Source: Acidimicrobiia bacterium
GTDB taxonomy: Bacteria > Actinomycetota > Acidimicrobiia > Spongiisociales > UBA5794
Assembly: GCA_965216945.1 (NCBI GenBank)
Contig: CBDCGU010000003.1
Location: forward strand, 899,868 to 963,867
DNA: 64,000 bases
Direction of reading: 5' to 3'
Shown here: piece after piece, positions 7,838 through 56,449 of the stretch
Layout: the number at the start of each line of letters is the position of its first letter
Position numbering within the stretch: the first letter of the stretch is position 1
The notes under the pieces: generated by a model
Database searches by the model: none
Told to the model about the DNA's origin: nothing
The model's input: the letters and a program-made list of their open reading frames with translations, nothing else
Program-made: the position numbers and the translations under genes

Positions 7838-8647
7838 TCACTCGCCCAGCTCGGAGAGGGCGTGTCGCAGCATCTCCTGGAGACGGCGCTCCATCACCGC
7901 CGGATGGACGTCGAGGCCGACGTGCAACCAAGGTGGGTAGGGCTCGATCGGCAGCGTTCCGAGGAGAGTGACGAGGTCCCACCTCGGGTCGTAGTCGTGA
8001 CCGGCCAGCGAGCACCAGTGGTCGCGCACACGGTTGGCCGTCGCCACGCCATACATGGCGGTGAGATTCACCCGGCAGTGGGCGATATCGACCGGCGCCG
8101 GCCCAACGCAGGCGTTCACCCAGTCGACCACGCCGCTGAGCCGGCTCTCCGAGAACAGCAGGTTCATGGGGTGGTGGTCGCGGTGCAGGACGACCATCGG
8201 CGCATCGGGGAGCCCGGGGGCGACGACGGCTGCGGCGCGCTGCCAGAGCCCGCGATCGCGCCGAGGGAGTTCCAGATCGTCGGCGATCCATGGGTCGTAG
8301 GGCCACCGCAGCGCAGCGGTGTCGGCCGCGGCGACCGCCACAGGCACCCCGGCGAGTGTGCGCAGCCACGCCGGCTCGGGAGGCTGCGGCGCCACGACCA
8401 TCCCCGGGAGATGAGTCATCACCACGGCGGGCACTCCCGCAGCGTGGCCCGCGGCGTCGTAGGCGATCAGCTCCGGGGTCGGCACGTCCACCGTCTCCGC
8501 CATCTGGAGCGCACCGGCCTCGTGCTCTGCCAGATCGGGTTCCTCGCAAAGCCATTGCTCGCTGGTGAACCACCGCACGACGTAACGCCGTTCGCGGTCG
8601 TCCTGCAACATCACCACCGTCGACGAGGTCGCCACGAGAGGGGCCAT
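7838..8647 (-). CDS. phosphotransferase family protein (APH/choline-kinase-like)
   Basis: HRDHHPMN catalytic loop and downstream DW motif. Start placed at the internal ATG (MAPLV...); the Arg-rich 148-aa extension to 9091 looks non-coding and overlaps a coupled plus-strand gene. Confidence 0.6.
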   Translation of the reverse strand: MAPLVATSSTVVMLQDDRERRYVVRWFTSEQWLCEEPDLAEHEAGALQMAETVDVPTPELIAYDAAGHAAGVPAVVMTHLPGMVVAPQPPEPAWLRTLAGVPVAVAAADTAALRWPYDPWIADDLELPRRDRGLWQRAAAVVAPGLPDAPMVVLHRDHHPMNLLFSESRLSGVVDWVNACVGPAPVDIAHCRVNLTAMYGVATANRVRDHWCSLAGHDYDPRWDLVTLLGTLPIEPYPPWLHVGLDVHPAVMERRLQEMLRHALSELGE

Positions 8648-8767
8648 GCGCACCACCGAGGCACCGATCGACGACTCGACCCACCGCAGATCGGCACCGG
8701 CGGGCAGTATCGTCTCGGCGTTCACTTCATCGTCCTGCGGTCCGGGAGGCCCATCGTGCTCGACAAG

Positions 8768-9034
8768 ATGCTCGGCATGTTCGACGACTCCGACCCGGGC
8801 AAGATACGCGACATCGTCGCGAGGGAATCGGACCCCGACGAGCTCGCCACATCGGCCGAGCCGGCGCCGGATCACAAGCTCGAGTCCATGGCGGGCAAAC
8901 TCGACGAGATCACGACACAGGTCCGACGGCTGAAAGCGCGATGGACGGAGGCGGACCGAGATCTCGGTGACGAGGGCGTGCAGTTTCGGGGGTCGGGTGA
9001 GCTGCCGACCGGCGTCGCCGCCATCGGTCCGTGA
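8768..9034 (+). CDS. small acidic hypothetical protein, 88 aa
   Basis: C-terminal piece of track ORF 7862..9034, with protein-like composition only from MLGMFDD onward. Its stop overlaps the GTG start of the next gene (GTGA). Confidence 0.5.
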   Translation: MLGMFDDSDPGKIRDIVARESDPDELATSAEPAPDHKLESMAGKLDEITTQVRRLKARWTEADRDLGDEGVQFRGSGELPTGVAAIGP

Positions 9035-10239
9035 CGGAGGCACCCCATCCCATCCGGCAGGGCCGCTCCGTGCGTCGCCGTGTCGTCGCACTCCTCGTTG
9101 CCTGGCTCGTGGGCGCGGCGGTGTTGCGGGTCACGCTCCTGGCGCCCGAGGTGTGCCCTGCATTCACCGCGGACGAAGCTCGCGCCACTGCGGTCGCCGC
9201 CGTCGACTGGATCGTCGACAACCAGTTCGACAACGGGCGTTATCTCTACCTGTACGACCGGGAGTCGGGGGAGACACCGAACCAGTACAACCTCGTGCGT
9301 CACGCCGGCACGACGATGGCTGTCTACCAACTGGTGGCGGCAGGCGAGACGGAGTACCTCGCGGCCGCCGACCGGGCCACGCAGTACATGCTCGACCGGA
9401 TGGTGACGACGGGCGACGATGCGGCAGGTTGGGCGGAGCCGGGCAACGACCTCCAACTCGGCGCCGCGGCACTGATGACGCTGTCCCTCCTGATCAGGCG
9501 AGAGGCGACAGGGGACGACGTGTTCGACGACGAGCTGCGCAGACTCGGGCGCTTCATGGAGGGCCAGCAACTGCCCGACGGGGTGATGCTGGAGCGCTGG
9601 CTGCTTTCCACCGGAGCACCCAACCCGAGTCAACGGTCCCGGTATGCCACAGGCGAGGCACTGTGGGCGTTTGCCTACCTCCACGACACGTTCCCGGGCG
9701 AAGGCTGGGACGGCGCGGCGTTTCGCACGTTGGACTACCTCAGTCTGCGTCGGGACGACGAGGAGCAACTGTTCCCCAACCCGTGGCCCGACCAGTGGGC
9801 GGCCTACTCACTCGGGCAGCTGGCAACCTGGGACCTGGAGGACCATCAGATCGAGTACGCCCGAAGCCTCGCTGCCCAGTTCGGTGTCCAAGTGCGATGG
9901 GATTCCCAGCGCAGCGGCGGCATCGCCACGCTCACCCACCCCCCTGAACCACGCGGCGCCGGATTCGGGACCGTGCTCGAGGGGCTCGGCCGCCTCGGCG
10001 TCCTGGCCGCCGCCGACGACCGCCTGGCCGACCTTCGCCAGCCGATCGAGGAGCGTCTCGTATGCGGCGCCGCCCGTCTGGCTGCCGCCCAGGTGGGAGC
10101 CGGCGACGTCGTGGGCGCTGAGCCGGAATACGAGCTCGGCGCCTGGTTCCTGAACGACGAGACTCGCATGGACGATCAACAGCATGCAGCCTCCGGCATG
10201 TTGTGGGCGGAAGCCGTGCTCCGAGGGGGCACACCGTGA
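9031..10239 (+). CDS. membrane-anchored repeat protein, possibly alpha/alpha-toroid (prenyltransferase/terpene-cyclase-like) fold
   Basis: 402 aa. N-terminal TM anchor, then repeated aromatic/Gly-rich segments (QFDNGRY, GEALWAF, WAAYSLGQ). The fold assignment is tentative. Confidence 0.55.
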   Translation: MTEAPHPIRQGRSVRRRVVALLVAWLVGAAVLRVTLLAPEVCPAFTADEARATAVAAVDWIVDNQFDNGRYLYLYDRESGETPNQYNLVRHAGTTMAVYQLVAAGETEYLAAADRATQYMLDRMVTTGDDAAGWAEPGNDLQLGAAALMTLSLLIRREATGDDVFDDELRRLGRFMEGQQLPDGVMLERWLLSTGAPNPSQRSRYATGEALWAFAYLHDTFPGEGWDGAAFRTLDYLSLRRDDEEQLFPNPWPDQWAAYSLGQLATWDLEDHQIEYARSLAAQFGVQVRWDSQRSGGIATLTHPPEPRGAGFGTVLEGLGRLGVLAAADDRLADLRQPIEERLVCGAARLAAAQVGAGDVVGAEPEYELGAWFLNDETRMDDQQHAASGMLWAEAVLRGGTP

Positions 10240-41725: not shown

Positions 41726-43162
41726 CTACAGATCCTGGTCCACGGGCGGAGGGGCGCCGGCGATCCCCGTCTCGGCGATGGCATCCCTGTGATCCGTTTC
41801 CGCGGCGGCGCTCTCCCCCTTCTTGGCGGCGATGCCTTCCTCACGAGCGGACTCGATCTTGTCCGTCGTGAGCTTCGGTGCCGCATAGACGAACAGCACG
41901 AGGTAGGACGCGGCGGTGACGAACCACGGCATGCGCAGCGCCAGCTCGCGGCTGGCAACGCTCTCTGTGCCGGAGACGACGAAACCACCGATGGCCAGAC
42001 CGATGGGCATCATGCCCCAGGCGAAGAACCGGTAGACGCTGTTGACGCGACCGAGCAGCTGATCGGGGATGATGGTCTGGCGCAGCGACACCGTGATGAC
42101 GTTCCACAGCACGGCAGCGAAGGTGAACGCCACGAACATCAGCCATGCGATCGGCCACAGCGAGCTGAGCCCGATGATGAGCGACGTGAGCCCGCCGCCG
42201 ATCAGCGTGAAGTAGAGGGACGTGCCGGAGCCGAGCCGCTCGCTGATCTTGGGGGCGGTGACGCTCCCGATGATGCCGCCGACTGCCCCTCCCGTCATGA
42301 GCAGCGCAAACGCAAACGAGTCGACGTCGAGCACCTCTTGGGAGAACAGCACGATGGTGGCGAAGGTGATGCTGCCGAGCCCGTTCATGATGCCGAGGAT
42401 GATGGCCATCGGCTTCAGGAGCGGATGGCGCCACAACCAGCGGAATCCCTCCGAGATCTCCTTGCGCCACTCGACCTTGCCTTGCGCCTCGCCCTGGTTG
42501 GTGCGGAAGTCGCCCTGGATGAGAAACACGAGGCCGGCCGCCACCGCAAAGGTGCCGGCGTCGACGAAGAACGGCAGCGCAAACATGATGCCGATCAGGA
42601 AGCTGCCGAGCGGTGGACCGGCGAAGCTGTTGGCCACCATCTCGGCGCCCCACAGCCGGCCGTTGGCGCGCTCCAGACCCTCCGGCTCGACGATGGCGGG
42701 CAAGATGGTCTGTGCGGCGTTGTCGCGGAGCACCTCGGCGAACCCGAAGAGCAGGGACGCCACGAGCAGCACCGTGTAGAGGGCGGCATCGGTGGGTATG
42801 TCGATGCCACCGGCGATCTGGTCGGGACGGGGGAGGCGGCTCTCGGCGGCCACGACCGCCACAGCCACTCCCAGCGTGATCACCGTCCTCACCACGTCCA
42901 TGGCCACCATGATCTTGCGGCGGTCGATCCGGTCGGTGATGACGCCGGCCGGCAGTGTGAACACGAGCCACGGCAGCCGCTGGGCCACTGCGATCAATGC
43001 GATCAGGACCGGATCACGGGTGACGGCGGAGGCCAGCCAGGGGTATGCGATGGCGGCGATGCCGTCACCGAGGTTGGAGACCACCGAAGCGGTCCACAGC
43101 TTGGCGTAGCTCGCACCGAGCTTGACCTTCTCTTTGGTGGTCGGTGCGGCGGTGTCGGTCAC
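41726..43162 (-). CDS. MFS transporter (EntS/multidrug-efflux-like)
   Basis: 478 aa with 12 TM and the DRIDRRK motif-A loop. Its GTG start overlaps the arsR stop. Confidence 0.85.
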   Translation of the reverse strand: MTDTAAPTTKEKVKLGASYAKLWTASVVSNLGDGIAAIAYPWLASAVTRDPVLIALIAVAQRLPWLVFTLPAGVITDRIDRRKIMVAMDVVRTVITLGVAVAVVAAESRLPRPDQIAGGIDIPTDAALYTVLLVASLLFGFAEVLRDNAAQTILPAIVEPEGLERANGRLWGAEMVANSFAGPPLGSFLIGIMFALPFFVDAGTFAVAAGLVFLIQGDFRTNQGEAQGKVEWRKEISEGFRWLWRHPLLKPMAIILGIMNGLGSITFATIVLFSQEVLDVDSFAFALLMTGGAVGGIIGSVTAPKISERLGSGTSLYFTLIGGGLTSLIIGLSSLWPIAWLMFVAFTFAAVLWNVITVSLRQTIIPDQLLGRVNSVYRFFAWGMMPIGLAIGGFVVSGTESVASRELALRMPWFVTAASYLVLFVYAAPKLTTDKIESAREEGIAAKKGESAAAETDHRDAIAETGIAGAPPPVDQDL

Positions 43163-43743
43163 GTACGCTCCTCGGGGAAGGTGGGACGGTCGGTGGGATA
43201 CACCCCGGCGACGAAACCGTAGACGACGTCGCCACCGCGGGGCAGGTCGACGAAGTCCTCGGAGAGCTCGACGACCCGCTGGGCAAACTCGACCGCACGC
43301 GCCTCGGGGATGCGCACGTGGCGCAAGGTGAACATGGGCAGCGGATCGGCCGGGTCGAGCGCCCGCGCCTCGTTCATCGCCTCGGCAAGCATGGGAAATG
43401 GCTTGTCATCCGACTCCATCGCCTTGATGACGATGGTTCTGGCGACCCGGCCGTAATACTTCTCGGTCATCGCACGCACCCGTGCCGTGCGCACCACCCG
43501 GATGAGCCCGGCCTTCTCGAGCACCTTGAGGTGGTAGCCAACGGTCCCCTTCGGCTTGTCCAGCGCCGCTGCGAGGTGGGTCGTCGTCGCCGCCCGGTCG
43601 AGCAGAAGATCGAGAATGTGGCGCCGGGTGTTGTCGCCGAGCGCCTTCAGCTGGCTTGGTGTCGAGGCCTCGACCTCCGGAGCCAGCTCGTAATCGGGCC
43701 CGGGGGCGGTGGCTGCTGAAGTCGCTTCGGCTCCGGTCGGCAT
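43159..43743 (-). CDS. ArsR-family transcriptional regulator
   Basis: Winged HTH (ALGDNTRRHILDLL) followed by a C-terminal extension. Start taken as the ATG at 43743; the track ORF begins at an upstream TTG. Confidence 0.75.
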   Translation of the reverse strand: MPTGAEATSAATAPGPDYELAPEVEASTPSQLKALGDNTRRHILDLLLDRAATTTHLAAALDKPKGTVGYHLKVLEKAGLIRVVRTARVRAMTEKYYGRVARTIVIKAMESDDKPFPMLAEAMNEARALDPADPLPMFTLRHVRIPEARAVEFAQRVVELSEDFVDLPRGGDVVYGFVAGVYPTDRPTFPEERT

Positions 43744-43779
43744 GTGCCAAATTGTCGGCACATCCCGACCATTTGTCAA
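43742..43779 (-). promoter_or_regulatory. putative arsR promoter (TTGACA-17-GACAAT) with 7-8-7 palindrome ATGTGCC-N8-GGCACAT overlapping the -10 and the ATG
   Basis: Read directly on the minus strand. It is consistent with an autoregulated and possibly leaderless transcript. Confidence 0.4.
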
Positions 43780-45951: not shown

Positions 45952-46818
45952 TCAGCCCCGCACTCTTGCGAGTGCCACATCGAGCGTGCGGGCCAGCGAA
46001 GCCTGCCGGTTGTTGATGGCGCGAACCACGGCAATGGCGAAGGGGGCCAACACGGCCGCAGCGACGTAGAGCCCCAACTCGAGCCGAAGGACGTTGACGA
46101 ACGACTCGGCGGTGTCCTCGACCGTGGTGAACCACGCCACCGTGAAGAGCAGACCCCTCGCGATGAATATCGCCCACCACACATTGAAGTACCAGGGCAC
46201 GGCCGGCGGCGGGTGCCACTCGTGTGTTGCAGACTCGGGTGGGCGGCTCTGCACCCAGAGATCGCCGGCGATCTGCCGGGGGCGATACAGCGAGACGATC
46301 GGCACCACCCATCCAAAGATCGCCCATCCTGCCTTGTGCTCGCTACGTCTTCCCAGCGGTTCGAGGTTCTTGTACGAGCGGTAGAACCACACGATCCAGA
46401 CGATCGAGATCAGCAGGAACATCGCCCCTTGGAACCCCGCCGCCAGGACGTAGCCCTCCTCGATGTCGAGTAGCCGGTCGACGTTCTCGACAACGCCGGA
46501 GTCTCTCAGGTCGGTCAGGGCGGCCAGGTAGGGAAGGGCCATGGAGAATGACCATGCGACGAAGCCGAGGTAGACCCCCAAGAGGAGCTGGAGGAACACA
46601 CCGGTCCCGTAGGTGCTGCGGTAGTCGATCAGCCGCACACCGCGGACGAATGCGGGCTGCTCCGCGACCGCCGCGGCCGGACGACGCGTCTCGGAGATAC
46701 GGGACGAGCTCCAGAGGTCCTTCGTTTCGGCGCAATACGGACAGTCGTACTTGACGTTTACGTTTCTTCCACAGCCCAGACACGGCTCGAATCTCGCCAC
46801 CACATGCTCCCTACGCAC
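45952..46818 (-). CDS. membrane protein with N-terminal zinc-ribbon (DUF4328-like)
   Basis: 288 aa. CxxC...CxxC ribbon (CLGCGRN...CPYC) followed by a Trp-rich 4-TM domain. Confidence 0.6.
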   Translation of the reverse strand: MRREHVVARFEPCLGCGRNVNVKYDCPYCAETKDLWSSSRISETRRPAAAVAEQPAFVRGVRLIDYRSTYGTGVFLQLLLGVYLGFVAWSFSMALPYLAALTDLRDSGVVENVDRLLDIEEGYVLAAGFQGAMFLLISIVWIVWFYRSYKNLEPLGRRSEHKAGWAIFGWVVPIVSLYRPRQIAGDLWVQSRPPESATHEWHPPPAVPWYFNVWWAIFIARGLLFTVAWFTTVEDTAESFVNVLRLELGLYVAAAVLAPFAIAVVRAINNRQASLARTLDVALARVRG

Positions 46819-46915
46819 ACGAAACGCCGGCTCCGGCGGCCGGCGCGCACACGATACGGCGGGCGCCTACCCGGTCCAATGGTGCAGCCGACCCATCGTG
46901 CCGGCTGGCAGGGTC

Positions 46916-47635
46916 CTACGCCCGCCGTCCCGACACCGCCCGCAGTGGAGCACCGAGTTGATGGACGGCGGTGCGGATGCCGGCGTTGTGCCACACGTTG
47001 CGGGCGTACCGCCACTGGCGTTTGGAGTCGATGCGTTCAGCCGTGTGGGTTACCTCTCCGTCGACGCAGAACCGAGCCGCCAGGGAGCGCAGGGTGTGAT
47101 ACCAGATCGCATCCTCCTTGCGGTCGAAGTACAGGGTGAAGACGAGGTCGTAGATGGGGTCGCTCGTTCGGAAGTAGGGCTGGACCTGGGCGACCGTGGT
47201 CCCGGCTTCGTCGTGGGCGCTGAACGTGATCCATCCCGCAAAGATGTGGCCCTGCGGCAGGGCGAAGGCGAACGACTCGTCGTCGGCATACATCACCATG
47301 ACGCCCGTCGACAGCTTCATCCCGCTCTGGCTGGCGTTGATGACTCCGACGTCTCCCGGCTCGAGGGCGGCGACTGGGCCGTAGAGGTGGGAGTTGTCCG
47401 GCCAGAACGTCGTGTACTCCGCCTTCCATGTCGCCACGACGTCCTGAGGAGTCGCGTCGGCGCCGGTCAGAGGCACCTGATACGTCTTGCGCCACAGCTG
47501 GCCGAAGCCCTGGAGGGCGCCAGACAGTTGCTTTCCCGACACGTTGAGATTCAGCGCCTGCGGGGGGAGATCTCCCACGGCGAGCTCTTCGACCGGCTTC
47601 GCCCAGCGCTCTTCACCCGTTGTCGCGTCGTTCAT
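46916..47635 (-). CDS. conserved hypothetical protein, last gene of the partner-switching operon
   Basis: 239 aa soluble protein with no recognisable motifs. Its ATG overlaps the upstream STAS gene stop. Confidence 0.55.
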   Translation of the reverse strand: MNDATTGEERWAKPVEELAVGDLPPQALNLNVSGKQLSGALQGFGQLWRKTYQVPLTGADATPQDVVATWKAEYTTFWPDNSHLYGPVAALEPGDVGVINASQSGMKLSTGVMVMYADDESFAFALPQGHIFAGWITFSAHDEAGTTVAQVQPYFRTSDPIYDLVFTLYFDRKEDAIWYHTLRSLAARFCVDGEVTHTAERIDSKRQWRYARNVWHNAGIRTAVHQLGAPLRAVSGRRA

Positions 47636-47997
47636 CGTCGCCCTGCGTCGCTTGCGGCGACACCTTCGGCCTCGGCGTCGTAGATCGTGATGGCCTCGTC
47701 GAGCCGGGTGAGCCGGAAGATCTCCCGGTAGTGGTCGCTCAGGCCGAAGGCACCCAGCGTCTGCCCGTGGCGTTGCGTCCTCACGAGCAGCGTGACGAGC
47801 AGACCGATTCCCGAGCTGTTCATGTAGTCGAGTCCGCCGAAGTTCAGGAGCACGCCCGTGGCGCCGCGTCGGGTCGCTTGCTCGTGGGCGTCCTGGAGCA
47901 CCCCCTCGGCGAATCGGGTGATCTCTCCTTCGATGTCGATCACGGCGACTCGGTCCTCCGGATACCGGACGTTCATTGCAATCGATGCTTCAGGCAT
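47632..47997 (-). CDS. STAS-domain anti-sigma-factor antagonist (SpoIIAA/RsbV-like)
   Basis: 121 aa from the internal ATG. Phosphorylatable Ser motif DYMNSSGIGLL. Confidence 0.8.
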   Translation of the reverse strand: MPEASIAMNVRYPEDRVAVIDIEGEITRFAEGVLQDAHEQATRRGATGVLLNFGGLDYMNSSGIGLLVTLLVRTQRHGQTLGAFGLSDHYREIFRLTRLDEAITIYDAEAEGVAASDAGRR

Positions 47998-48373
47998 GAC
48001 GGCCTCCTCCCGGGGGATCGAACACGGTGGTCGCAAGCAGCGCCGTTGCCTCGTCGCCGACCACGGACATGAAGTCGACGAGTCGGGTGATCTCGAAGAT
48101 CTCGCGATAGTGGTCGCTCAGCCCGCAGGCGACGACGGGCACGCGCGCCGCTCGGGATCGACCGAGCAGGTCCACGATCAGGGCGATTCCGGTGCTGTTG
48201 ATGAACTCGGTTGCCGCAAAGTTGAGCACGAGACGTTGCGGGCTGCCCGCCAGCGCCTCACCCGTGACAGCTTCCAGGTCTTCGGCGGCGAAGGCGTTGA
48301 TGTCGCCGGCGAGGTCGATGACCACCGAGTCCTCGGCGGGGCGTATCTCTGCCTCGAATCGGCTGCCGTTCAC
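47990..48373 (-). CDS. STAS-domain anti-sigma-factor antagonist (second copy)
   Basis: 127 aa with the motif EFINSTGIALI. Confidence 0.8.
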   Translation of the reverse strand: MNGSRFEAEIRPAEDSVVIDLAGDINAFAAEDLEAVTGEALAGSPQRLVLNFAATEFINSTGIALIVDLLGRSRAARVPVVACGLSDHYREIFEITRLVDFMSVVGDEATALLATTVFDPPGGGRHA

Positions 48374-49941
48374 GGCCTGCTCCTTTCAACGTCCATGACG
48401 AGGCGTAGCGTGCGTCGCTCGCCGTCGGTCATGACCTTCAGCTCGTCCACCATGTGCTCGATGAGATAGACGCCCCAGCCCCTCGGCGCTTGCTCACCGG
48501 CCAGCTTGGCGGCGAGATCCGGACTCGTGGCCGCACCCATCTCACGATGCCCGCCCCGGTCGGTGACCTCGACAATCACGGACCGGGCCGACGCCAGCAC
48601 CCGAATGTCGACCGGCACGTCTGCGCTGAAGCGGTTGCCGTGCTCGATCGCATTCATCACCGCCTCGGAGACCGCAGTCTCCAGCTTCTGTACCTGGGCG
48701 GGCTCCAGGTCGAGATCCTCGACGGCAGAGACGACGCGGCGCACCGCCGCACGCTCGTTGCCCTCTTCGCTGGCGACCGAGAAGTCGGCCAGGATCTTGG
48801 TGCGGGCGTCGATCGACTGGGCGGCTTCTCCGGTGTGCTCGAAGCTGACGAGCGTCACGTCGTCCTCCACGTCGCCGCTGCCGTCGGTGAACTCGGCGAA
48901 CTCGGCGAGGAGATAGTCGATGAGGCCGTCACCCCCGGGATACTTGCCGACGAGCCCCATCAGCCGGGGGAAGCCGAACATTTCGCCGGCCGCGCTCCGG
49001 GCCTCGGCGAGCCCGTCGGAGTGGAATAGGAGGGAGCTGCCGACCGCCACCTCGAAGTCGACCTGGTCGTAGGCAGCTTCTTTCATGAGACCGAGGGGGA
49101 GCCCGGTGGCACGGACCTCCATCACCCCGGACGCCGCCCGCAGGTACGGCAGGTTGTGCCCGGCGTTCGCCATGGTGAGCTTGCCGGATGCCGGGTCGAA
49201 GGTGGCGTACTGGCAGGTGACGAACATGTTGCGGGGGATGTCGGCCACCAGCGACGCATTGACCCGCTCCAGCACGTAGGCGGGCTCGCCGGCCTGCTGC
49301 GCCGCTTCCCGCAACAGGCTGCGGGTCGTCGCCATGACGAGGGCCGCCGGCACGCCCTTGTCGGCGACGTCGCCGATCGCAAACCCGAGGCGGCCGTCTT
49401 CGAGGGGTACGAAGTCGTAGAAGTCGCCGCCCACTTCTCGCGCCGACTGGTAGAACGTGCCGATCTTCCAGCCGTCCACCTCGGGCAGCTGTGCCGGCAG
49501 GAAGTTCTGCTGGATCAGCCGAGCGACGCGTAGCTCCTGGGCGATCCGTTCCCGCTCCCTCACCTCATCTGCCTGCGTCCGCATGAGCTCGGCGAGGCGC
49601 AGCGCGGGGGCGGCGCGGGTGGCGAGGCGTTGCAGCAGCCGCCGATCCTCCGAGTTGTACGGCCGGCCGCTGCGCCGCGGCCCCAGCGACAGGATGCCGA
49701 CGAGCTCGCCTCCGGTGACGATCCCCACCGCCAACTCCACTCCCGCCTCCCGCAGTGAGAGGACGAGCGGGGTTTCGACGTCGAAGGTGTCGACGTCGAC
49801 CGGCGCATCGACGGTCATGAGATAGGCAACGAACGGGTCGGTGGGATCGATCCGGTGGCGCGCCGCTGCCGGCGGCTCGCCGGCCGTCGCCGTCTCGCCG
49901 CCGTCCTGGCGACGACCCGAGCGGGCGCTCCACCACCTCAC
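48370..49941 (-). CDS. fusion protein: partial GAF - PP2C (SpoIIE/RsbU) phosphatase - HATPase_c (RsbW-type Ser kinase)
   Basis: 523 aa from the GTG at 49941 (GTGA overlap with the upstream gene). GAF beta-strand motifs (PLVLSL, GELVGILSLG), PP2C motifs GDFYDF, GDVADKG and FHSDGL, and kinase N box NAIEHGN plus G boxes DRGGH and RGWGVYLI. Confidence 0.85.
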   Translation of the reverse strand: MRWWSARSGRRQDGGETATAGEPPAAARHRIDPTDPFVAYLMTVDAPVDVDTFDVETPLVLSLREAGVELAVGIVTGGELVGILSLGPRRSGRPYNSEDRRLLQRLATRAAPALRLAELMRTQADEVRERERIAQELRVARLIQQNFLPAQLPEVDGWKIGTFYQSAREVGGDFYDFVPLEDGRLGFAIGDVADKGVPAALVMATTRSLLREAAQQAGEPAYVLERVNASLVADIPRNMFVTCQYATFDPASGKLTMANAGHNLPYLRAASGVMEVRATGLPLGLMKEAAYDQVDFEVAVGSSLLFHSDGLAEARSAAGEMFGFPRLMGLVGKYPGGDGLIDYLLAEFAEFTDGSGDVEDDVTLVSFEHTGEAAQSIDARTKILADFSVASEEGNERAAVRRVVSAVEDLDLEPAQVQKLETAVSEAVMNAIEHGNRFSADVPVDIRVLASARSVIVEVTDRGGHREMGAATSPDLAAKLAGEQAPRGWGVYLIEHMVDELKVMTDGERRTLRLVMDVERSRP

Positions 49942-51242
49942 GTCTCGGCCTCCCCTCGTGACACCGGGAGCCAGAGCTCGATCGTGGCCGGCTGGAAGGC
50001 GCCTTCGGCAGCGGCGATGAGGTCGGGGCCGACGCTGTCGATGCGGCTGCGGGTGGCGAGCCGCTCGTCGAAATCGTCGAGCGAACGCTCCAGGTCCCAT
50101 CGTTGCCTGAAGAACACCCGGTCCACGACCCGTTGCAGCCGCTCTCGCAGCGGCAGGAAGAGTGCGGCGGCAGCCCCCGTGGCGAGCACCAGGGCCAGGG
50201 TGTTGTCGCGGATGCCGAACGACTCGCTGGAAATGGCCTGGAACATGGCGACGAGGGCGAAGTACGCGGCGAACAGCACCGACGTCAGCGTGAAGTACAC
50301 GACCGTGCGATTGATCGCCAGGTCCAGGTCCCACAGCCCGCGTTTCACGATCAGGTACACGAGCCCCAGCCCGAAGATGAGGGGCAGGGCAGCAACGAGA
50401 GATTCCACCAAGATTCGCCGCACCAGCTCACCCCCGGCCCGCGCCTGTGATTCCGACAGCGCAGCGAGCTGATCGGAGAACATGAGCACCGGAACGAAGA
50501 TGGCGGCCATCACCGCGGTCAGGCCCAAGACGGCGCGGCGCGTCGGATCGTTGGTGCGCACCAGTTGCACCAACTGCACCAGCCAGCCTGCGGCAACCAC
50601 GACGAGGACCCCAAGCGCCCCGGACTCCCACAAGGCGTCGTCTCCGACGAACACGAAGCCCGTGCCGAGCAGGATGAACCAGCCCGCGATCGCGAGGGCC
50701 AACCATCTGATGTTGCGGCCATCGGGAAGCACGAAGAGCATCCCCACCAGCGAGATGAAGAAGCTGATGCCCATCACGAGGGCGGCGATGCCGACGATGA
50801 GTGTGTCTTCTTCGAAGATCTCACCTGCTGTCACCCCAAGCCCGGAAATGAGGAACCACGACACGAAGACGGCGGCCCAACCGCGCCGGGTCCGCCACAC
50901 GAGCCATCCGACGAAAACCGAGCCGGTAAACAGCACGAGCATGCGGGAGACGACGAGGGCTCCGTGCCACTCGGCGCTGAGCCCGAGATCGGAGAGGGCG
51001 CGGAGCTGCGCGGATGAGAGGTGGTAATGCCCCGGGCCCCCGAACCAGGTGACGGGGCCTACTGTCGTCGCATCTCGCCACATGAGTCCCAGGCTGGCCG
51101 CAAGCAACACCGCGCCGCCCGCAGCCAGCACGAGCCACCACCACCGCGCCAGCCGGAGCGCGAGCCCGTCCGGTCGGGGATCTTGGGACAGCCACCTCAC
51201 GAGCGCCCTCACCGTGCCACCTCCGTCGAGTCCGGGATCCAC
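49938..51242 (-). CDS. polytopic membrane protein with C-terminal cytoplasmic GAF-N-terminal-like segment (sensor candidate)
   Basis: 434 aa, about 10 TM. The 90-aa C-terminal tail ends ...ATIELWLPVSRGEAET. A paralogue of the upstream gene. Confidence 0.7.
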   Translation of the reverse strand: MDPGLDGGGTVRALVRWLSQDPRPDGLALRLARWWWLVLAAGGAVLLAASLGLMWRDATTVGPVTWFGGPGHYHLSSAQLRALSDLGLSAEWHGALVVSRMLVLFTGSVFVGWLVWRTRRGWAAVFVSWFLISGLGVTAGEIFEEDTLIVGIAALVMGISFFISLVGMLFVLPDGRNIRWLALAIAGWFILLGTGFVFVGDDALWESGALGVLVVVAAGWLVQLVQLVRTNDPTRRAVLGLTAVMAAIFVPVLMFSDQLAALSESQARAGGELVRRILVESLVAALPLIFGLGLVYLIVKRGLWDLDLAINRTVVYFTLTSVLFAAYFALVAMFQAISSESFGIRDNTLALVLATGAAAALFLPLRERLQRVVDRVFFRQRWDLERSLDDFDERLATRSRIDSVGPDLIAAAEGAFQPATIELWLPVSRGEAET

Positions 51243-52891
51243 AACGCAACATCGACCGACCCGATGGAGGACTGCACGGCGTGGACCAGACGGTCCTGGA
51301 CCGCCGCGCTTGTCAGCTCATCGCGGACGGACGCGGTGAACGAGGCCAGCACCTCGTCGGCTTGGGCCTTGGTGGGGAACCAGCGATGGTCGATCCAGGA
51401 TTGAAAGCTGCGCCGCAGCGGGCGGTAGGACACCGCGATCACGCTGGTGGCAACGAGGATGGCCAGCGGGCGTCCGGCATCGCCGAACACGACCCCGGAG
51501 ACGGTCGTGGTGGCGATCACGATGGCGACGTACACGACCGCCAGCAGCGGCGTCACCATCGCCACCACGGCCGCCCGGTTCCAGAACAGCTTGATGTCCC
51601 ACCATCCCTGACGCCGCACCAGATGCAGCACCCACAGTCCCAGCAGCACGGGCGTCGCCAGGAACAGAGTGAGGTAGATCTGTTGCCACAGGAAGGCAGC
51701 GACGCTCATCCCGGCCGCGGCGTCATACAGCGCCTGCCCCGGCACGAGCCACAGGACCAGCACGATCATCGAAGCGAGGAGCAGGCGCGCCTCGCGTCGC
51801 TCCTCTGGTGACGCCTCCCGGTAACGGAAGACCTGCGACGCCATTGCGCCTCCCAGAACTCCAAGCGCACCCAGGGCGCCCGTCACCCACACCCAACCCT
51901 CGTCGCCGGACGACAGGAGCCACGCCGCCAGCACCGCGGCCGCCGCAACACCCAACAGCTTGAGATACGTTCCTCGGAAGCGGCCATCGGGGAACGTATA
52001 GAGGAAGCCGCCGAACATGATGAATGTGAGAACGCCCAGCGCATCCCCGACGAGGGCGGCAATATCGCCTATGCCGGCCACACTCTCGAAGCGAACGGTG
52101 CTGCCATCCCCGAACGTGACGAGGGGGGCGACGGCGATGACGAGCGTCACGAAGAGCGCGATCCAATGGCGCGGCCGCTTGGAGTAGATGAACCATGCGA
52201 TGCCCAGCGCCGCCGCCGACACCAGGCCCTGGCGCACGACCACGAGCCACGGATACCAGTCGGGGACCGTCAGAGACCCGGCCGTCAACGCCAGAGCCGT
52301 TGCGGAGTTCAGGCGATAGAACCCGGGCTCACCGATCTCCTGCGGAGAGCCGGTGAAACCGGCGAGCTGGCTCGCTTCGATCCACAGACCGGCCAGGTAG
52401 ACAACGGTGACGGCAGCCGTGAGCCCAAAGACCACGAGCCAGGTCGCCCGTGTCGCACGCAGTCTCCGGCCGGCAAGCAGTCTCGGTTCCGAGCTCGGGG
52501 CGGCACTGCCCCGCAGCCGCCGCCTTGCTGCGATCGTCACCAGCCAACCAACCCCCAGGGCCGCCAGGACCTGCGCCAGCGCAAGGCTCATCATGATCGG
52601 GATCCACAACCAGCTGTCTTCGAGCGGCTCTATGAGCCCGGAGAGCGCAACGACGGCGGAGACGACCGGACCGAACAGCGCCAACAGCACCAGCGCCGCG
52701 ATGATCCAGCGGCGCCGCCGTTGATACCACGGCTCGTAGACGTTCCCGTGCGCCTCGGCGGCCGCTCGGCGGCGGTCGATCACGCCGCCGGCGACGAGCC
52801 AGACGACGATGGGCGTCAGGGCCAGCCCAGCGATCAGAAGGACATTCACCGCGGCCTCGATTCCACGCTCGATGTCATCATCACAGATCAC
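51209..52891 (-). CDS. polytopic membrane protein, paralogue of the downstream gene
   Basis: 560 aa, about 13 TM. Its C-terminal tail ends ...VDVALWIPDSTEVAR, the same position as in its paralogue. Overlaps the next gene by 34 nt. Confidence 0.7.
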   Translation of the reverse strand: MICDDDIERGIEAAVNVLLIAGLALTPIVVWLVAGGVIDRRRAAAEAHGNVYEPWYQRRRRWIIAALVLLALFGPVVSAVVALSGLIEPLEDSWLWIPIMMSLALAQVLAALGVGWLVTIAARRRLRGSAAPSSEPRLLAGRRLRATRATWLVVFGLTAAVTVVYLAGLWIEASQLAGFTGSPQEIGEPGFYRLNSATALALTAGSLTVPDWYPWLVVVRQGLVSAAALGIAWFIYSKRPRHWIALFVTLVIAVAPLVTFGDGSTVRFESVAGIGDIAALVGDALGVLTFIMFGGFLYTFPDGRFRGTYLKLLGVAAAAVLAAWLLSSGDEGWVWVTGALGALGVLGGAMASQVFRYREASPEERREARLLLASMIVLVLWLVPGQALYDAAAGMSVAAFLWQQIYLTLFLATPVLLGLWVLHLVRRQGWWDIKLFWNRAAVVAMVTPLLAVVYVAIVIATTTVSGVVFGDAGRPLAILVATSVIAVSYRPLRRSFQSWIDHRWFPTKAQADEVLASFTASVRDELTSAAVQDRLVHAVQSSIGSVDVALWIPDSTEVAR

Positions 52892-53026
52892 ACCCTGCGG
52901 TGCGTGCGCACCGGAACCGTTACGAATCGCAACCTGATGCCATCCCCGTGTCCCCTCACCGTTACGACACCTACGTTGCGCCCCGGTTCGTTGCGGTGAG
53001 TCATCGATTCGAGTAGAAAGCGGCCC

Positions 53027-55687
53027 GTGCCCACCTCAGTGCAGCTCTTCGGAGCACCCACGATCGTGCGCGACGGCGAGTCGCCGCGGATCGACACCCG
53101 AAAGGCAGTGGCGATCCTCGCCTATCTCGCCGTCGAAGGGCCCGCGGTGCGGCGCGACCGCCTGGCGTCGCTGCTGTGGCCCGAGTCGTCTCAAGACCGG
53201 GCCCGGGCGGTGCTGCGCCGCACGCTGACGTCACTGCGCCGCGCCGTCGGGCGAGATGCCATTGCCGCCACCCGGGAGACGGTCGCCCTCGTCCCGACGG
53301 CCGTCACCGTCGACTGCATCGAGTTCGCCGAGGCTATGGCGGCCGGTGACCTCGCCACCTCGGCAGCCATCTACCGCGGTGAGTTCCTCGCCGGATTCTC
53401 GCTGCGAGACGCCCCGGATTTCGACGACTGGCACCGTCTCGAATCCGATCGCTTCCGCCACGAGGCGGATCGGGCGCTCGAGGGGCTTGCGGCAAACGCG
53501 GCGGAGCGGGGCCATCTGGCCGAGGCGTTCGCAACCGCGCAGCGTCGCATCAAGTTGGATCCGCTCAACGAGGACGCCTACCGGACGGCGATGCTGCTGG
53601 CAGCGAAGCAGGGCAAGGGCTCCGAGGCCGTGGCGCTCTATCGCACGTGCCTGCGGACTCTCGAGGAAGAGCTGGCGGTGGAACCCCTGCCGGCGACGGT
53701 CGCCGTGTACGAGGCGATCCGGAGGGGGGAGGTGCCGGCCGAACCGCAGCCCCGGCCCTCCGAGCCGCCGCTCGACGCCGCGGCACTGGCGGAACCGGCC
53801 CTCGTCGGGCGAGACGGCGAGCTGGCCCGGCTGGATGCTGCACTCATCACTCCGGGGGGGCGCGCCATTGCGGTCGCAGGCGGCCCGGGTACCGGCAAGA
53901 CCAGACTGCTGGAGACCTGGCGGGGCGAACTCGAAGCCAGGGGACGGCGCGTCGTGCTCATCCGGTGCTTCGACGGAGAGCAGGGGCTTCCCTTCGCCCC
54001 GCTCCTCACCCTCGTGCGCCGTCTGGCGAGCGGGGACGACCCGCTCGCCTCCGAGCTGATACAGCTCCTCGCCGGACCCGACACGGATTCGAGCCACCGT
54101 GACGGACCGGGACGCCGGCTCGCCGCGTTCGAGGCGCTCCTGGCGCTGTTCGCCCGCGAAGGGCTGCGCGGCGGCGTACTCATCGTCGACGACGCCCACC
54201 TCGCCGACCCCTCGAGCCGCGAGTTCTTCACATATGTGGCCCGGAGGGTCGATCTGCTCGACTTGGTGGTGGTGCTGAGTACTGCGCCCGGGCTCGCCAT
54301 GGGGCTCCGCGACGTCGCCCACGAGACCCTGTGGCTCGCTCCCCTCTCGGCCGGCGAGATCCGGCGTCTGGCTGATCTCCTCGCCGTCACCGACGAGAAG
54401 ATCGTGGCCGAGACGGTCGAGACGACGGGAGGGATTCCGGCTCTCGTGCTGGCGAGTCTCCAGCGCAGGGCTCCGGATCGGCCGGCGGCGGTCGCCACGC
54501 CCACACTCGATGCCCTCCCGGAGGCGGTGCGCCAGGTCATGGAAGCAGCCGCGACGGTGGATCGACCCGCCGACATCGCACTGCTCCAGCATGTCGCCGG
54601 CCGCAGCCTGGCCGAGATCGCGGGGGCGGTGGAGACCCTGGTGCAGAACCGCCTCGTCCGCTTCACCGCGGGAGGTACGGTCGAGCCGGCAGCCGCTCAC
54701 GTCGTCGCAGAAGTGCTCACCGGGATCAACCCCGCACGCCGCCGCCTGCTCCACGACCGTGCCGCCGAGCGGCTGCAACGAACTCCGGGCAAGGAGGCCG
54801 AGGCGGCGCGCCATCACCACCTCGCCGGGAACGACGCCGAGGCTGCCCGACTGTACGCAAGCGCTGCCGAACGGGCCGCGATGTCATCGGCCAATGCCGA
54901 GGCTGCCCGGCACCTGGGCCGTGCCCTTGCTCTCGGCCATCCGGACCCCGCGAGGCTGCACACTCTCTTGGGAGATGTGGAGAGCTTCGAAGGCAGGTAC
55001 GCAGGGGCGCGGGCGGCATACGAGAAGGCGGCTGCACTCACGGCAGGGAACGAGCTCGCTCAGATCGAGCACAGGTTGGGTCTGCTGGCCCTGCGTCGCG
55101 GTGACCTGGCGGCGGCCGAGAGCCATCTGCGCTCCGGGCTGCTCGAGCTCGACGACGGCCCGGCGGTTCGATCCCGGATCCTGGCGGCGCTCGCCGTGGT
55201 GAGCGAACGGACGGGGAATACCGAGGAAGCCGGTTGCCTCGGGGCTGAGGCGGTGGCGACCGCATCGGAGTCGGGCGACGTCACGACCGAAGCCCAGGCG
55301 CACAACGTTGCCGGCCTGGCCGCCCTGGCGCGCGGAGATCATGCTTCCGCCGCCCGTGAGCTGCGCGATGCGCTGCGTCTCGGTGAGCTGGCGGGCTCGC
55401 CCGATGCGACGGCGGCAGCCCACAACGGGCTCGGCCTGCTCGCCATGGCACGCGACGATCCGGCCACCGCCCTAGGCCACTTCGAGGCGGCGGTGACGAT
55501 TGTCGAACGAATCGCCGATCGGCACCACCTCGCCGTTGCCCTCAGCAACCTCGGGGACGCACAGCAGGCACTGGGAAAACGTGAGGCTGCCCAGGACGCG
55601 ATCCGACGCTCGGCGACGCTGCTCGCCGACATCGGCGGTCACCCCGCAGAAGGTCGAGCGGGCGTATGGAGCCTCACGAGCTGGTAG
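53027..55687 (+). CDS. SARP/AfsR-family transcriptional regulator (OmpR-type wHTH, BTAD, NB-ARC-like ATPase, TPR)
   Basis: 886 aa. N-terminal SARP DNA-binding and BTAD region, P-loop GGPGTGKT, and C-terminal TPR-like Ala-rich repeats. Confidence 0.85.
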   Translation: MPTSVQLFGAPTIVRDGESPRIDTRKAVAILAYLAVEGPAVRRDRLASLLWPESSQDRARAVLRRTLTSLRRAVGRDAIAATRETVALVPTAVTVDCIEFAEAMAAGDLATSAAIYRGEFLAGFSLRDAPDFDDWHRLESDRFRHEADRALEGLAANAAERGHLAEAFATAQRRIKLDPLNEDAYRTAMLLAAKQGKGSEAVALYRTCLRTLEEELAVEPLPATVAVYEAIRRGEVPAEPQPRPSEPPLDAAALAEPALVGRDGELARLDAALITPGGRAIAVAGGPGTGKTRLLETWRGELEARGRRVVLIRCFDGEQGLPFAPLLTLVRRLASGDDPLASELIQLLAGPDTDSSHRDGPGRRLAAFEALLALFAREGLRGGVLIVDDAHLADPSSREFFTYVARRVDLLDLVVVLSTAPGLAMGLRDVAHETLWLAPLSAGEIRRLADLLAVTDEKIVAETVETTGGIPALVLASLQRRAPDRPAAVATPTLDALPEAVRQVMEAAATVDRPADIALLQHVAGRSLAEIAGAVETLVQNRLVRFTAGGTVEPAAAHVVAEVLTGINPARRRLLHDRAAERLQRTPGKEAEAARHHHLAGNDAEAARLYASAAERAAMSSANAEAARHLGRALALGHPDPARLHTLLGDVESFEGRYAGARAAYEKAAALTAGNELAQIEHRLGLLALRRGDLAAAESHLRSGLLELDDGPAVRSRILAALAVVSERTGNTEEAGCLGAEAVATASESGDVTTEAQAHNVAGLAALARGDHASAARELRDALRLGELAGSPDATAAAHNGLGLLAMARDDPATALGHFEAAVTIVERIADRHHLAVALSNLGDAQQALGKREAAQDAIRRSATLLADIGGHPAEGRAGVWSLTSW

Positions 55688-56324
55688 CCGGCTCCGGTAC
55701 GGGGATATCGAGCCGGCGTCCCCAGGCCCTACCGGGCAACCGTTGCTCCAAATAGCGGATGGCGCGCACCGCTCCCCAGGCGTAAGCGGGAAAGAGGCTG
55801 AGGAACAATGGTGCGTTGAGCCACACTCCCAGGCCTTCGTGGAAGATCTCGTCCCGGACCTCGGGACCGAAGAGACCGAAGAAGCCGATGGCCCCCAGCG
55901 CTCCCACGACGAGCACGGCAGAGCGAACCCGGTAGCGACGCATCCGCCCGGCGGCGGCCAGGATCAAGCCGAGATTCGCACCGGCGAACGCACCGAAGAT
56001 GAGAAGGAATGCCGTGCCGTCGATGGTCATCTCGCGCCGTCCCCCGGTGAGCGAGACAATCCGCATCGCCAGCCGGCTGCCGCCACCGAGGATGATCAGA
56101 CCGGCGAGGCCACCACCGATCAGCCCGGAGAGCACAAGCCTCGGTATGCGACGTACGTACACCAGTGCGAAACCCAGCATGAGCAGCAGGGCGACGGCGA
56201 ACACGAACGTCAGGCCTGGGTTGTTCTCCCCCACGATGGGGCCGAGCACCGTGAGCGGCAAGCCGCCAATCAGGAGCGCGCCGATGGCGAGTTTCTCTCG
56301 TTTGGGATCTGTTGGCAATCGCAT
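55674..56324 (-). CDS. hypothetical integral membrane protein
   Basis: About 216 aa from the internal ATG. 6 Gly/Leu-rich TM segments. Confidence 0.5.
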   Translation of the reverse strand: MRLPTDPKREKLAIGALLIGGLPLTVLGPIVGENNPGLTFVFAVALLLMLGFALVYVRRIPRLVLSGLIGGGLAGLIILGGGSRLAMRIVSLTGGRREMTIDGTAFLLIFGAFAGANLGLILAAAGRMRRYRVRSAVLVVGALGAIGFFGLFGPEVRDEIFHEGLGVWLNAPLFLSLFPAYAWGAVRAIRYLEQRLPGRAWGRRLDIPVPEPATSS

Positions 56325-56449
56325 GGCGCCCACTGTTCCCGGCTCCCGTTCCCGAATCGTTACGAGCCCCGTAGCGCCGGCGCGATCGCCGTCACAGGTC
56401 TGACTTCCGGCCCTACACCCAATCGACCCCCACGACGTAACTTCCAGCC

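Follow-up and report, generated by a model that had tools for sequence, protein, structure and literature searches.

A partner-switching-type cassette of Actinomycetota and Chloroflexota with paralogous membrane modules and a GAF domain apparently divided between genes

An operon that encodes a serine phosphatase, a serine kinase and two phosphorylatable STAS proteins, and no sigma factor, raises two questions: what does such a switch sense, and what does it control? Most descriptions of partner switches present them as regulators of sigma factors whose sensors are soluble or take a single input. The operon considered here occupies positions 46916-52891, minus strand, of a 64,000-nucleotide stretch (the window) of contig CBDCGU010000003.1, from an Acidimicrobiia bacterium (assembly GCA_965216945.1, positions 899,868 to 963,867). 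An initial annotation, made from the letters of the DNA, read it as six translationally coupled genes with two membrane sensor candidates and an unassigned terminal protein. That reading is partly supported by the present analysis and is extended by it, since the incomplete GAF domain of the enzyme, the SRPBCC fold of the terminal protein, an adjacent SARP-type regulator and a shared promoter element had all been missed. The account we arrive at is a membrane-gated STAS phospho-switch, that is, a partner-switching module with GAF gating and SARP-driven transcription; taken whole, we give it about an even chance of being correct. Confidence is high for the architecture and conservation of the cassette and low for the identity of its output.

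Reading of the open reading frames (ORFs) of the window confirmed six overlapping genes, head to tail on the minus strand. The start codons chosen were those with a Shine-Dalgarno sequence. The genes, designated G1 to G6, and the element that follows them are:

51209-52891, minus strand: G1, 560 amino acids (aa), alternative start at 52849; membrane sensor module
49938-51212, minus strand: G2, 424 aa; membrane sensor module with about 10 transmembrane (TM) segments, paralogue of G1
48370-49941, minus strand: G3, 523 aa; cytoplasmic bifunctional enzyme with a truncated GAF domain, a long helix, a PP2C phosphatase and an RsbW-type serine kinase
47990-48373, minus strand: G4, 127 aa; STAS protein, with the serine in YINSTGIA
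47632-47997, minus strand: G5, 121 aa; STAS protein, with the serine in YMNSSGIG
46916-47635, minus strand: G6, 239 aa; Bet v 1/START (SRPBCC) fold
46825-46838, minus strand: terminator-like hairpin, 78 nt past the G6 stop codon, a consensus match only

The junctions from G1 to G6 are, in order, GTGA, GTGA, GTGA, an 8-nt overlap and ATGA. Overlap of all neighbours therefore stands as annotated, but the upper figure of 34 nt given for it does not, as it arises from taking the longest ORF for G2. A public protein collection contains G2 to G6 with identical boundaries. The true start of G1 may be 52849, because of the position of the proximal promoter element described below, and the operon probably ends at the hairpin. 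A Pfam and NCBIfam scan of all six proteins, the hidden Markov model check that had been suggested for them, assigned G3, G4 and G5 to families and found no family for G1, G2 or G6.

Relatives of G6 were found by profile search in at least 577 species-representative genomes of Actinomycetota and Chloroflexota. Eighty loci were fetched, and the counts reported here are over 81 related loci, onto whose ORFs the six window proteins were mapped with phmmer. G3 lies upstream of G6 in every locus with enough upstream DNA (67/67). G5 lies upstream of G6 in 76 of 78 loci, directly adjoining it in almost all. A G4-type STAS protein is present in 67 of 77, and three of the ten exceptions have a second STAS protein that scores as G5-type. 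The number of G1/G2-type modules ranges from zero to seven per locus; they lie upstream and at times downstream. The core thus consists of the G3 enzyme, two STAS proteins and G6, preceded by 0-7 membrane modules, and the description as a six-gene operon holds for this copy but not generally. So regular an arrangement is not due to chance, given the frequency with which G3, G5 and G4-type genes accompany G6. Conservation across Actinomycetota, which had been proposed as a check, is borne out, and the cassette is kept in Chloroflexota as well.

The best relatives come from metagenome-assembled genomes (MAGs) of Acidimicrobiia. Carriers on the Actinomycetota side include Acidimicrobiia, Actinomycetes, Thermoleophilia, Rubrobacteria and Nitriliruptoraceae; those in Chloroflexota include Ktedonobacterales, Anaerolineales, Chloroflexia, Dehalococcoidia and Limnocylindrales. 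The cassette is present in hundreds of soil and water bacteria of the two phyla, and some hosts are culturable, such as Kribbella. In Kribbella pratensis four proteins of about 400 aa, none with a Pfam family, come before the G3 homologue; after it come a 133-aa protein, a 123-aa STAS protein and a 254-aa protein. The 133-aa protein has no precomputed Pfam hit and is a G4-type STAS protein by the phmmer mapping. Some loci depart from the common plan. Two Ktedonobacterales loci (L021, at 8248-9510, and L024, at 8209-9483) encode a G3 homologue of about 420 aa that covers G3 residues 24-369 and has no kinase domain; both also lack a G4-type STAS protein and keep G5 and G6. From their gene content, the minimal core is a PP2C, one STAS protein and an SRPBCC protein. 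The G6 gene is tandemly duplicated in seven loci (L016, L018, L037, L045, L062, L071 and L073).

The enzyme at the center of the cassette is G3. Pfam detects in it a SpoIIE/PP2C domain (2.4e-47), a HATPase_c_2 domain (2.2e-20) and a partial GAF domain, and neither a PAS nor a STAS domain. No REC domain was matched in G3 either: by Pfam and NCBIfam and in the AlphaFold (AF2) model, the N-terminus is the partial GAF. The two catalytic domains are:

48832-49470, minus strand: G3 PP2C (SpoIIE-type) domain, residues 158-370
48391-48798, minus strand: G3 RsbW/SpoIIAB-type kinase domain (HATPase_c_2), residues 382-517

Among 72 G3 homologues, the PP2C metal-binding motifs GGDFYD, GDV.DKG, SDG and EDD are invariant, as are E426, N430 and H434 of the kinase N-box and D461/G463 and G488/G490 of its G-boxes. 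Both domains are, judged by motif, catalytically intact, and the claim that a PP2C phosphatase and an RsbW-type kinase share one polypeptide is upheld. The homologues, from Actinomycetota and Chloroflexota, fall in a narrow length range, about 495-560 aa. Among solved structures the nearest is the RsbU-RsbW portion of Mycobacterium tuberculosis Rv1364c, the protein that had been named as a relative from the start, followed by RssB, SpoIIE, SiaA and SpoIIAB. Most G3 homologues carry a short conserved basic N-terminal segment before a low-complexity leader, such as MTTLTxSFRRRFLGR or MSAWPQSIARVIRR, perhaps a helix that binds the membrane or a module.

G4 and G5 both match STAS models in Pfam, and also TIGR00377. 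Each had been said to retain a phosphorylatable residue, and this is so throughout both families: the serine of the N-S-T-G motif is invariant in 69 of 69 G4-type homologues, and that of N-S-[GS]-G (N-S-S-G in the window) in 82 of 82 G5-type homologues. The cassette is therefore classified, from its sequence, as a partner-switching-type module, in which one chain carries a PP2C and an RsbW-like kinase, alongside two serine-bearing STAS proteins. By analogy with the established RsbU/RsbW/RsbV systems, the natural reading is that G4 and G5 would be reversibly phosphorylated through G3.

What, then, would set the balance of such an enzyme? The two multi-TM proteins had been assigned to the system, correctly as judged from natural fusions of such a module to the enzyme, but it had been overlooked that they are paralogues and that G3 begins with a GAF domain. 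G1 and G2 are 28% identical (E 1e-29) in an alignment that reaches both C-terminal ends; about 10 TM segments of G1 are homologous to those of G2, and about three more precede them. No Pfam or NCBIfam family was consistently matched among 50 modules. None of the 50 matches HisKA_7TM (PF16927), a model that the distant homologue P0133 barely passes (28.9 bits against 28.6). Relatives of G2 fall into two groups: stand-alone proteins of about 400 aa, and HisKA_3 histidine kinases of about 670-730 aa with a GAF domain after the same TM module. The three regions on which the argument turns are:

51212-51430, minus strand: G1 cytoplasmic tail, with juxtamembrane helix, GAF helix 1 and strand 1, ending in ...VDVALWIPDSTEVAR and then the stop codon
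49941-50159, minus strand: G2 cytoplasmic tail, ...LRERLQRVVDRVFFRQRWD...QPATIELWLPVSRGEAET and then the stop codon
49501-49851, minus strand: G3 head, an incomplete GAF domain with long connecting helix, residues 31-147

The 81 loci hold 158 complete modules, and those listed end 0-27 residues past the xSLWLR strand (...QPxHVSLWLR). Nearly invariant columns of the module cluster in the cytoplasmic tail, PLRxRxQxxVDRRFYRxRYD...F...QP...W, which is its best-conserved part. On the other side of the gene boundary, G3 residues 1-30 are disordered, and the match of the protein to the Pfam GAF profile, 133 positions long, covers positions 35-133 only. The AF2 model (pLDDT 85) places helices at residues 36-43 and 58-65, strands at 70-76 and 79-86, and a helix at 97-147; the head is two short helices and a single beta-hairpin, followed by a helix of some 50 residues that runs into the PP2C domain. 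A full GAF fold, with N-terminal helix, sheet of five to six strands and C-terminal helix, is found in G3 alone neither by Pfam nor in the model. Profile-profile alignment finds no resemblance between the tail and the G3 head, and in hhalign comparisons they take up successive parts of one contiguous juxtamembrane/GAF region of HisKA_3 histidine kinases, the tail on columns 1-69 (probability 97.8%) and the head on columns 87-138 (probability 96.3%).

Natural fusions join the same two parts in the same order. Two Acidimicrobiia MAGs (loci L007 and L009) encode module, GAF, PP2C and kinase as a single 930-aa protein. We searched G3 residues 1-150 against 1.84 billion representative proteins, and 37 of the 150 best hits, those examined, are single chains with both parts. 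In them the G2-type match stops near G2 residue 415, and in full-length fusions the G3-type match starts shortly afterwards, near G3 residue 23-35; the gap in P0357 is 7 residues. Many of these fusions stop before the kinase domain. Because the modules stop after strand 1, G3 starts with the remainder and co-linear natural fusions exist, the gene boundary can be placed inside a GAF domain, in the loop after strand 1, as a conserved break and not a sequencing artefact. Fission of genes within a folded domain, always at the same point, is an unusual feature.

It might instead be supposed that G2 and G3 are fragments of one membrane phosphatase gene, split by a frameshift artefact or by decay into a pseudogene. 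Fused relatives do exist, and one close relative (P0273, a 453-aa metagenomic fragment 66% identical to G3) reads through the junction with G2-type tail and G3-type enzyme in one ORF; it may reflect toggling between fusion and fission among close relatives, or an assembly error. However, over 70 independent genomes show the same split, with one to seven modules each that cannot all be fused to one enzyme, G3 homologues keep to their narrow length range, and in the window G3 has a good Shine-Dalgarno sequence and a GTGA junction before it. The comparative data effectively refute this explanation, whose probability we consider negligible. Programmed frameshifting at the same junction was also rejected, as the Kribbella junction is a 12-nt gap and not an overlap.

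That the module tail completes the GAF domain of G3 in trans is a further step, which we take with moderate confidence from the sequence comparisons. Several observations speak against it. Chimeras of the G2 or G1 tail with the G3 head did not score higher against the Pfam GAF model (28-29 bits, against 30), and a longer match, back to profile position 8, was obtained with the G1 chimera only. AF2 gives the isolated G3 head a pLDDT of about 90 and places a helix where strand 2 is expected, so that the head may be a stable minimal domain that needs no completion. Three loci (L020, L041 and L080) have a split-type G3 and no module within 10 kb. The membrane proteins might accordingly be truncated relatives of sensor kinases that leave the GAF domain as it is, acting independently as decoys, scaffolds or transporters, or contacting G3 in some other way. 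We judge this quite improbable, as the cut falls at the same position across the 158 complete modules, the tail is the part of the module most conserved, about a quarter of the best relatives of the head (the 37 single chains) are co-linear fusions, the G2/G3 junction is translationally coupled through GTGA, and the modules share the cassette-specific promoter described below.

Two further arrangements of the G3 head were seen. In the Chloroflexia locus L052 (7663-9399), a soluble G3 homologue has its own GAF helix 1 and strand 1 (...ILRELERTVRVLAQPAHIVLWRH...), with no membrane module nearby and no G4; an enzyme with these two elements built in speaks for the split GAF reading. In six giant proteins of 1211-3041 aa (P0304, P0345, P0355, P0359, P0419 and P0420), the G3-type GAF head and helix are matched 7-13 times in tandem.

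The terminal protein, G6, is the most conserved member of the cassette, with 3333 homologues, a mean column identity of 55% in a 44-sequence alignment, and relatives at about 50% identity in both phyla. It had been described as coupled to the operon and of unknown function; the coupling stands (the ATGA junction with G5), but a fold can now be assigned. No sequence match for G6 was found in the PDB. Its AF2 model (pLDDT 87, pTM 0.83) has a helix-grip fold, and Foldseek aligns it to PR-10/Bet v 1 proteins, bacterial START proteins and PYL abscisic-acid receptors. There are 89 structure matches at E <= 1e-3, and all of the 50 listed are of the Bet v 1/START type, with TM-scores mostly 0.5-0.68 when normalised to the target. 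By its modelled structure, G6 is a member of the SRPBCC/Bet v 1/START superfamily. G6 has no hit to Pfam DUF1990 (PF09348) even at E <= 10, whereas its homologue P0197 passes that model (26.4 bits, cut-off 23), and precomputed Pfam annotation assigns PF09348 to P0197, P0199 and P0201. In sequence terms, G6 is a distant, divergent relative of DUF1990 and not a recognised member. The possibility raised at the outset, that the terminal protein would prove to belong to a common unrelated enzyme family, is not what was found: G6 is an obligate and highly conserved part of the cassette.

Is G6 where the signal leaves the switch, or where one enters? In plants, PYR/PYL/RCAR receptors inhibit PP2Cs upon binding abscisic acid. 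A bacterial counterpart would make G6 an input, a ligand-binding SRPBCC protein that acts directly on the PP2C domain. The fold fits, with PYL-PP2C complexes among the structure matches (3jrq_B, 5zcg_C); G6 accompanies the PP2C domain in all 67 loci, the kinase-less variants included; and the 44-sequence alignment has many invariant polar and aromatic residues, which would suit a binding pocket. However, the PYL matches are no better than those to generic PR-10/START proteins (TM-score 0.44-0.47 normalised to the query), and G6 is translationally coupled to the STAS protein G5, not to G3. We regard a direct PYL-like action of G6 on the phosphatase as unlikely.

The usual target of a partner switch is the next candidate for the output. 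The sigma factor had been reported missing from the operon and suggested to be unlinked; neither the operon nor the flanking genes scanned, up to about 10 kb away, include one, and no sigma-like family recurs across the 81 loci. A conventional anti-sigma switch could nevertheless operate if the RsbW-like domain of G3 sequestered a sigma factor encoded elsewhere, the STAS proteins released it, and G6 and the SARP-type regulator were accessory. HATPase_c_2 of G3 does match the SpoIIAB and RsbW anti-sigma models, and PP2C-kinase fusions that bind an unlinked sigma factor are documented, namely CrsR and HsbR with RpoS (PMC6482189). Apart from the lack of any nearby or recurrent sigma factor, this explanation is opposed by L021 and L024, which have no kinase domain and yet keep PP2C, G5 and G6, and by the many natural fusions that end before the kinase domain. 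From these variants and fusions it follows that the invariant core needs no anti-sigma domain. A sigma factor elsewhere in the genome is thus an improbable target, in our estimate; such an arrangement would concern the output only and would be compatible with gating through the split GAF domain.

A regulator beside the cassette might offer another outlet and, at the same time, drive its transcription. The elements upstream of G1 are:

53027-55687, plus strand: large SARP-type regulator, 886 aa, divergent from the operon
52907-52924, minus strand: promoter-proximal element CGTAACGgttccGGTGCG upstream of G1, two heptamer repeats 11 nt apart
52958-52967, minus strand: second exact copy of TCGTAACGGT, 42 nt upstream of the first copy
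55674-56324, minus strand: gene for a polytopic membrane protein of 216 aa, without a family match; it converges on the SARP gene, the two 3' ends overlapping by about 14 nt
56347-56364, minus strand: second cassette-type promoter element, CGTAACGattcGGGAACG, preceding the 216-aa membrane-protein gene

The SARP-type protein has Pfam matches to BTAD (1.4e-16), AAA_16 (4.5e-16, a STAND/NB-ARC-like ATPase) and TPR_12 (1.6e-13), and its OmpR-type winged helix is weakly detected, below threshold (Trans_reg_C, E 0.003). This is the domain set of the large SARP architecture (PMC10972967). It is not an AfsR orthologue by NCBIfam model NF053617, against which it scores 41.8 bits for a cut-off of 1430. 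Over its full length it is 37% identical to the Kribbella gene at the same position, and a homologue lies divergently upstream in roughly 40 of the about 48 loci whose upstream edge was judged visible in a hand count. In a clustering of ORFs across the 81 loci, the SARP family was the only one to recur beside the cassette; this single-linkage clustering merged overlapping frames, and its one use was to reveal the antisense shadow of the SARP gene.

Known SARP operators are heptamer direct repeats in 11-bp units next to the -10 element (PMC10972967). A comparable element recurs at the cassette. In 52 of 64 loci a CGTAACG heptamer is found 30-60 nt before the start codon of G3, and the 220-nt stretches before G3 hold 63 copies where 1.75 are expected. 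The consensus from 54 loci is CGTAACG-ATT-cC-gGGACG-N9-TAGAA, with the -10-like element at a fixed +27 in 48 of the 54 and often a third repeat 11-12 nt further upstream. The composite pattern occurs 53 times in 1.26 Mb of the loci: 42 times before G3, seven times before membrane modules and four times elsewhere. In the window the element lies upstream of G1 and not of G3, because G2 and G3 overlap. The close relative L012 has the same CGTAACGgttccGGTGCG element, also upstream of G1, and variants of the form CGCAACG occur in the window at 52974-52980 and 52989-52995. At 52955-53000, in the same divergent intergenic region, a 13-nt inverted repeat (CTCACCGTTACGA / TCGTTGCGGTGAG; 85% complementary, 20 nt apart) overlaps the distal heptamer. 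In loci L007 and L009 homologues of the 216-aa membrane-protein gene adjoin the SARP gene and carry the same element, and this gene is probably in the regulon of the cassette. On these comparisons of sequence, the SARP-type regulator and the CGTAACG promoter are part of the system, lying outside the coordinates first annotated.

These parts suggest a sequence of events in which each step is conditional. The tail of a membrane module would dock on the incomplete GAF domain of G3, tethering the enzyme to the membrane and completing the domain. The state of the module would then pass through the long helix (residues 97-147) to the PP2C domain, and the resulting shift would alter the balance of phosphatase and kinase, and with it the phosphorylation of G4 and G5. 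The paralogous modules (two in this operon, as many as seven in other loci) would compete for the one enzyme, and several membrane signals would therefore converge on one switch. Output would run through protein-protein contacts of the STAS proteins, most likely with the translationally coupled G6 and possibly with the adjacent SARP-type protein, there being no co-encoded sigma factor. The divergent SARP-type activator would bind the CGTAACG repeats, 11 nt apart and just upstream of the -10-like TAGAA, and so drive transcription of the cassette. Two points count against parts of this scheme: the proximal promoter element of the window lacks a convincing -10, and the output step is a guess, G6 being equally possible as an input.

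The more specific proposal, that the split GAF domain is a plug-in interface at which up to seven interchangeable polytopic sensors complete the GAF domain of a single PP2C/kinase in trans, read out by the SRPBCC protein and/or the SARP/STAND activator and not by a sigma factor, we put forward tentatively, as somewhat less probable than its opposite. If true, many membrane signals would be multiplexed onto one STAS phospho-switch, and amplification of the membrane half into competing paralogues would be a simple genetic way of adding inputs to a fixed signaling core.

The other genes scanned near the cassette encode ArsR-type regulators, an MFS transporter, an aconitase-family protein, a DUF4328 protein, a WS/DGAT acyltransferase, a GMC oxidoreductase and an ABC permease. 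The DUF4328 gene (45952-46818, minus strand) lies directly downstream of the hairpin after G6 and does not recur in related loci. At 41726-43779 (minus strand), a gene for a 206-aa ArsR-family HTH protein and one for a 478-aa MFS transporter overlap by 4 nt, and look like an ordinary regulator-efflux pair. PADLOC found no defence system, with seven proteins giving no match; its match to the AAA region of the SARP-like protein is a weak one, to mad8 (E 4e-5).

The systems nearest in logic are HsbR-HsbA of Pseudomonas and CrsR-CrsA of Shewanella, in which REC, PP2C and an RsbW-type kinase/anti-sigma domain share one chain and a STAS protein is the antagonist; their operons encode no sigma factor, and the STAS protein has the non-sigma partners FlgM and HsbD (PMC6482189). 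The cassette resembles them in having PP2C and then HATPase_c_2 on one chain, a STAS partner and no linked sigma factor. It differs in its input, which there is a REC domain fed by a phosphorelay and here a truncated GAF domain apparently completed by separate membrane modules. It also has two STAS proteins in place of one, together with an SRPBCC partner and a SARP regulator that those systems lack, and it comes from Actinomycetota and Chloroflexota where they come from Proteobacteria. Nearest in structure is Rv1364c (PDB 3KE6), with PAS, PP2C, RsbW and STAS in one chain. The likeness is confined to the PP2C-kinase part of G3 (sequence E 8.9e-14, Foldseek E 1e-21); Rv1364c is soluble, has a PAS sensor and not a split GAF domain, carries its STAS domain fused, and has neither membrane modules nor an SRPBCC protein.

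Unsplit counterparts of the membrane arrangement are the TM-GAF-PP2C phosphatases and TM-GAF-HisKA_3 kinases, which share a homologous TM module, the juxtamembrane DRRFYRxRYD helix and the GAF domain. In the cassette, by contrast, the chain is interrupted within the GAF domain, past strand 1, and paralogous copies of the membrane part form an array. Convergence of several paralogous sensors on one pathway that switches STAS phosphorylation is familiar from the Bacillus stressosome (RsbRA-RD, RsbS, RsbT). The stressosome sensors are soluble proteins in which STAS is joined to a globin-like N-terminal domain, and they come together in a single large complex, whereas those of the cassette are polytopic membrane proteins without a STAS domain. 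The plant PYR/PYL/RCAR-PP2C system likewise sets a Bet v 1/START-fold protein alongside a PP2C; the analogy is at the level of the fold only, there being no sequence similarity, and the STAS and kinase components are absent in plants.

Literature searches for the gene combination or for a split GAF domain found nothing relevant. The initial impression that the layout looks undescribed holds in so far as no description was found in the literature searched, but the fusion of PP2C and kinase acting on a STAS protein without a linked sigma factor has precedents in HsbR and CrsR (PMC6482189). What appears undescribed is the fission inside a domain with amplified membrane halves, the pair of STAS proteins, the SARP promoter and the SRPBCC protein as an obligate member. 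That a bacterial PP2C should have a START-fold protein as its constant companion is reminiscent of the logic of the plant abscisic-acid receptors. The regulator, for its part, resembles the large SARPs of the AfsR/PolY class in combining a SARP DNA-binding domain with BTAD, an NB-ARC-like ATPase and TPR, and its presumed operator resembles theirs in the 11-nt periodicity of heptamer repeats by the -10 element (PMC10972967). It differs in standing beside a signaling cassette and not in an antibiotic gene cluster, and in being conserved in Chloroflexota as well as Actinomycetota; a large SARP with its operator conserved in two phyla, outside antibiotic gene clusters, would widen the known role of SARPs.

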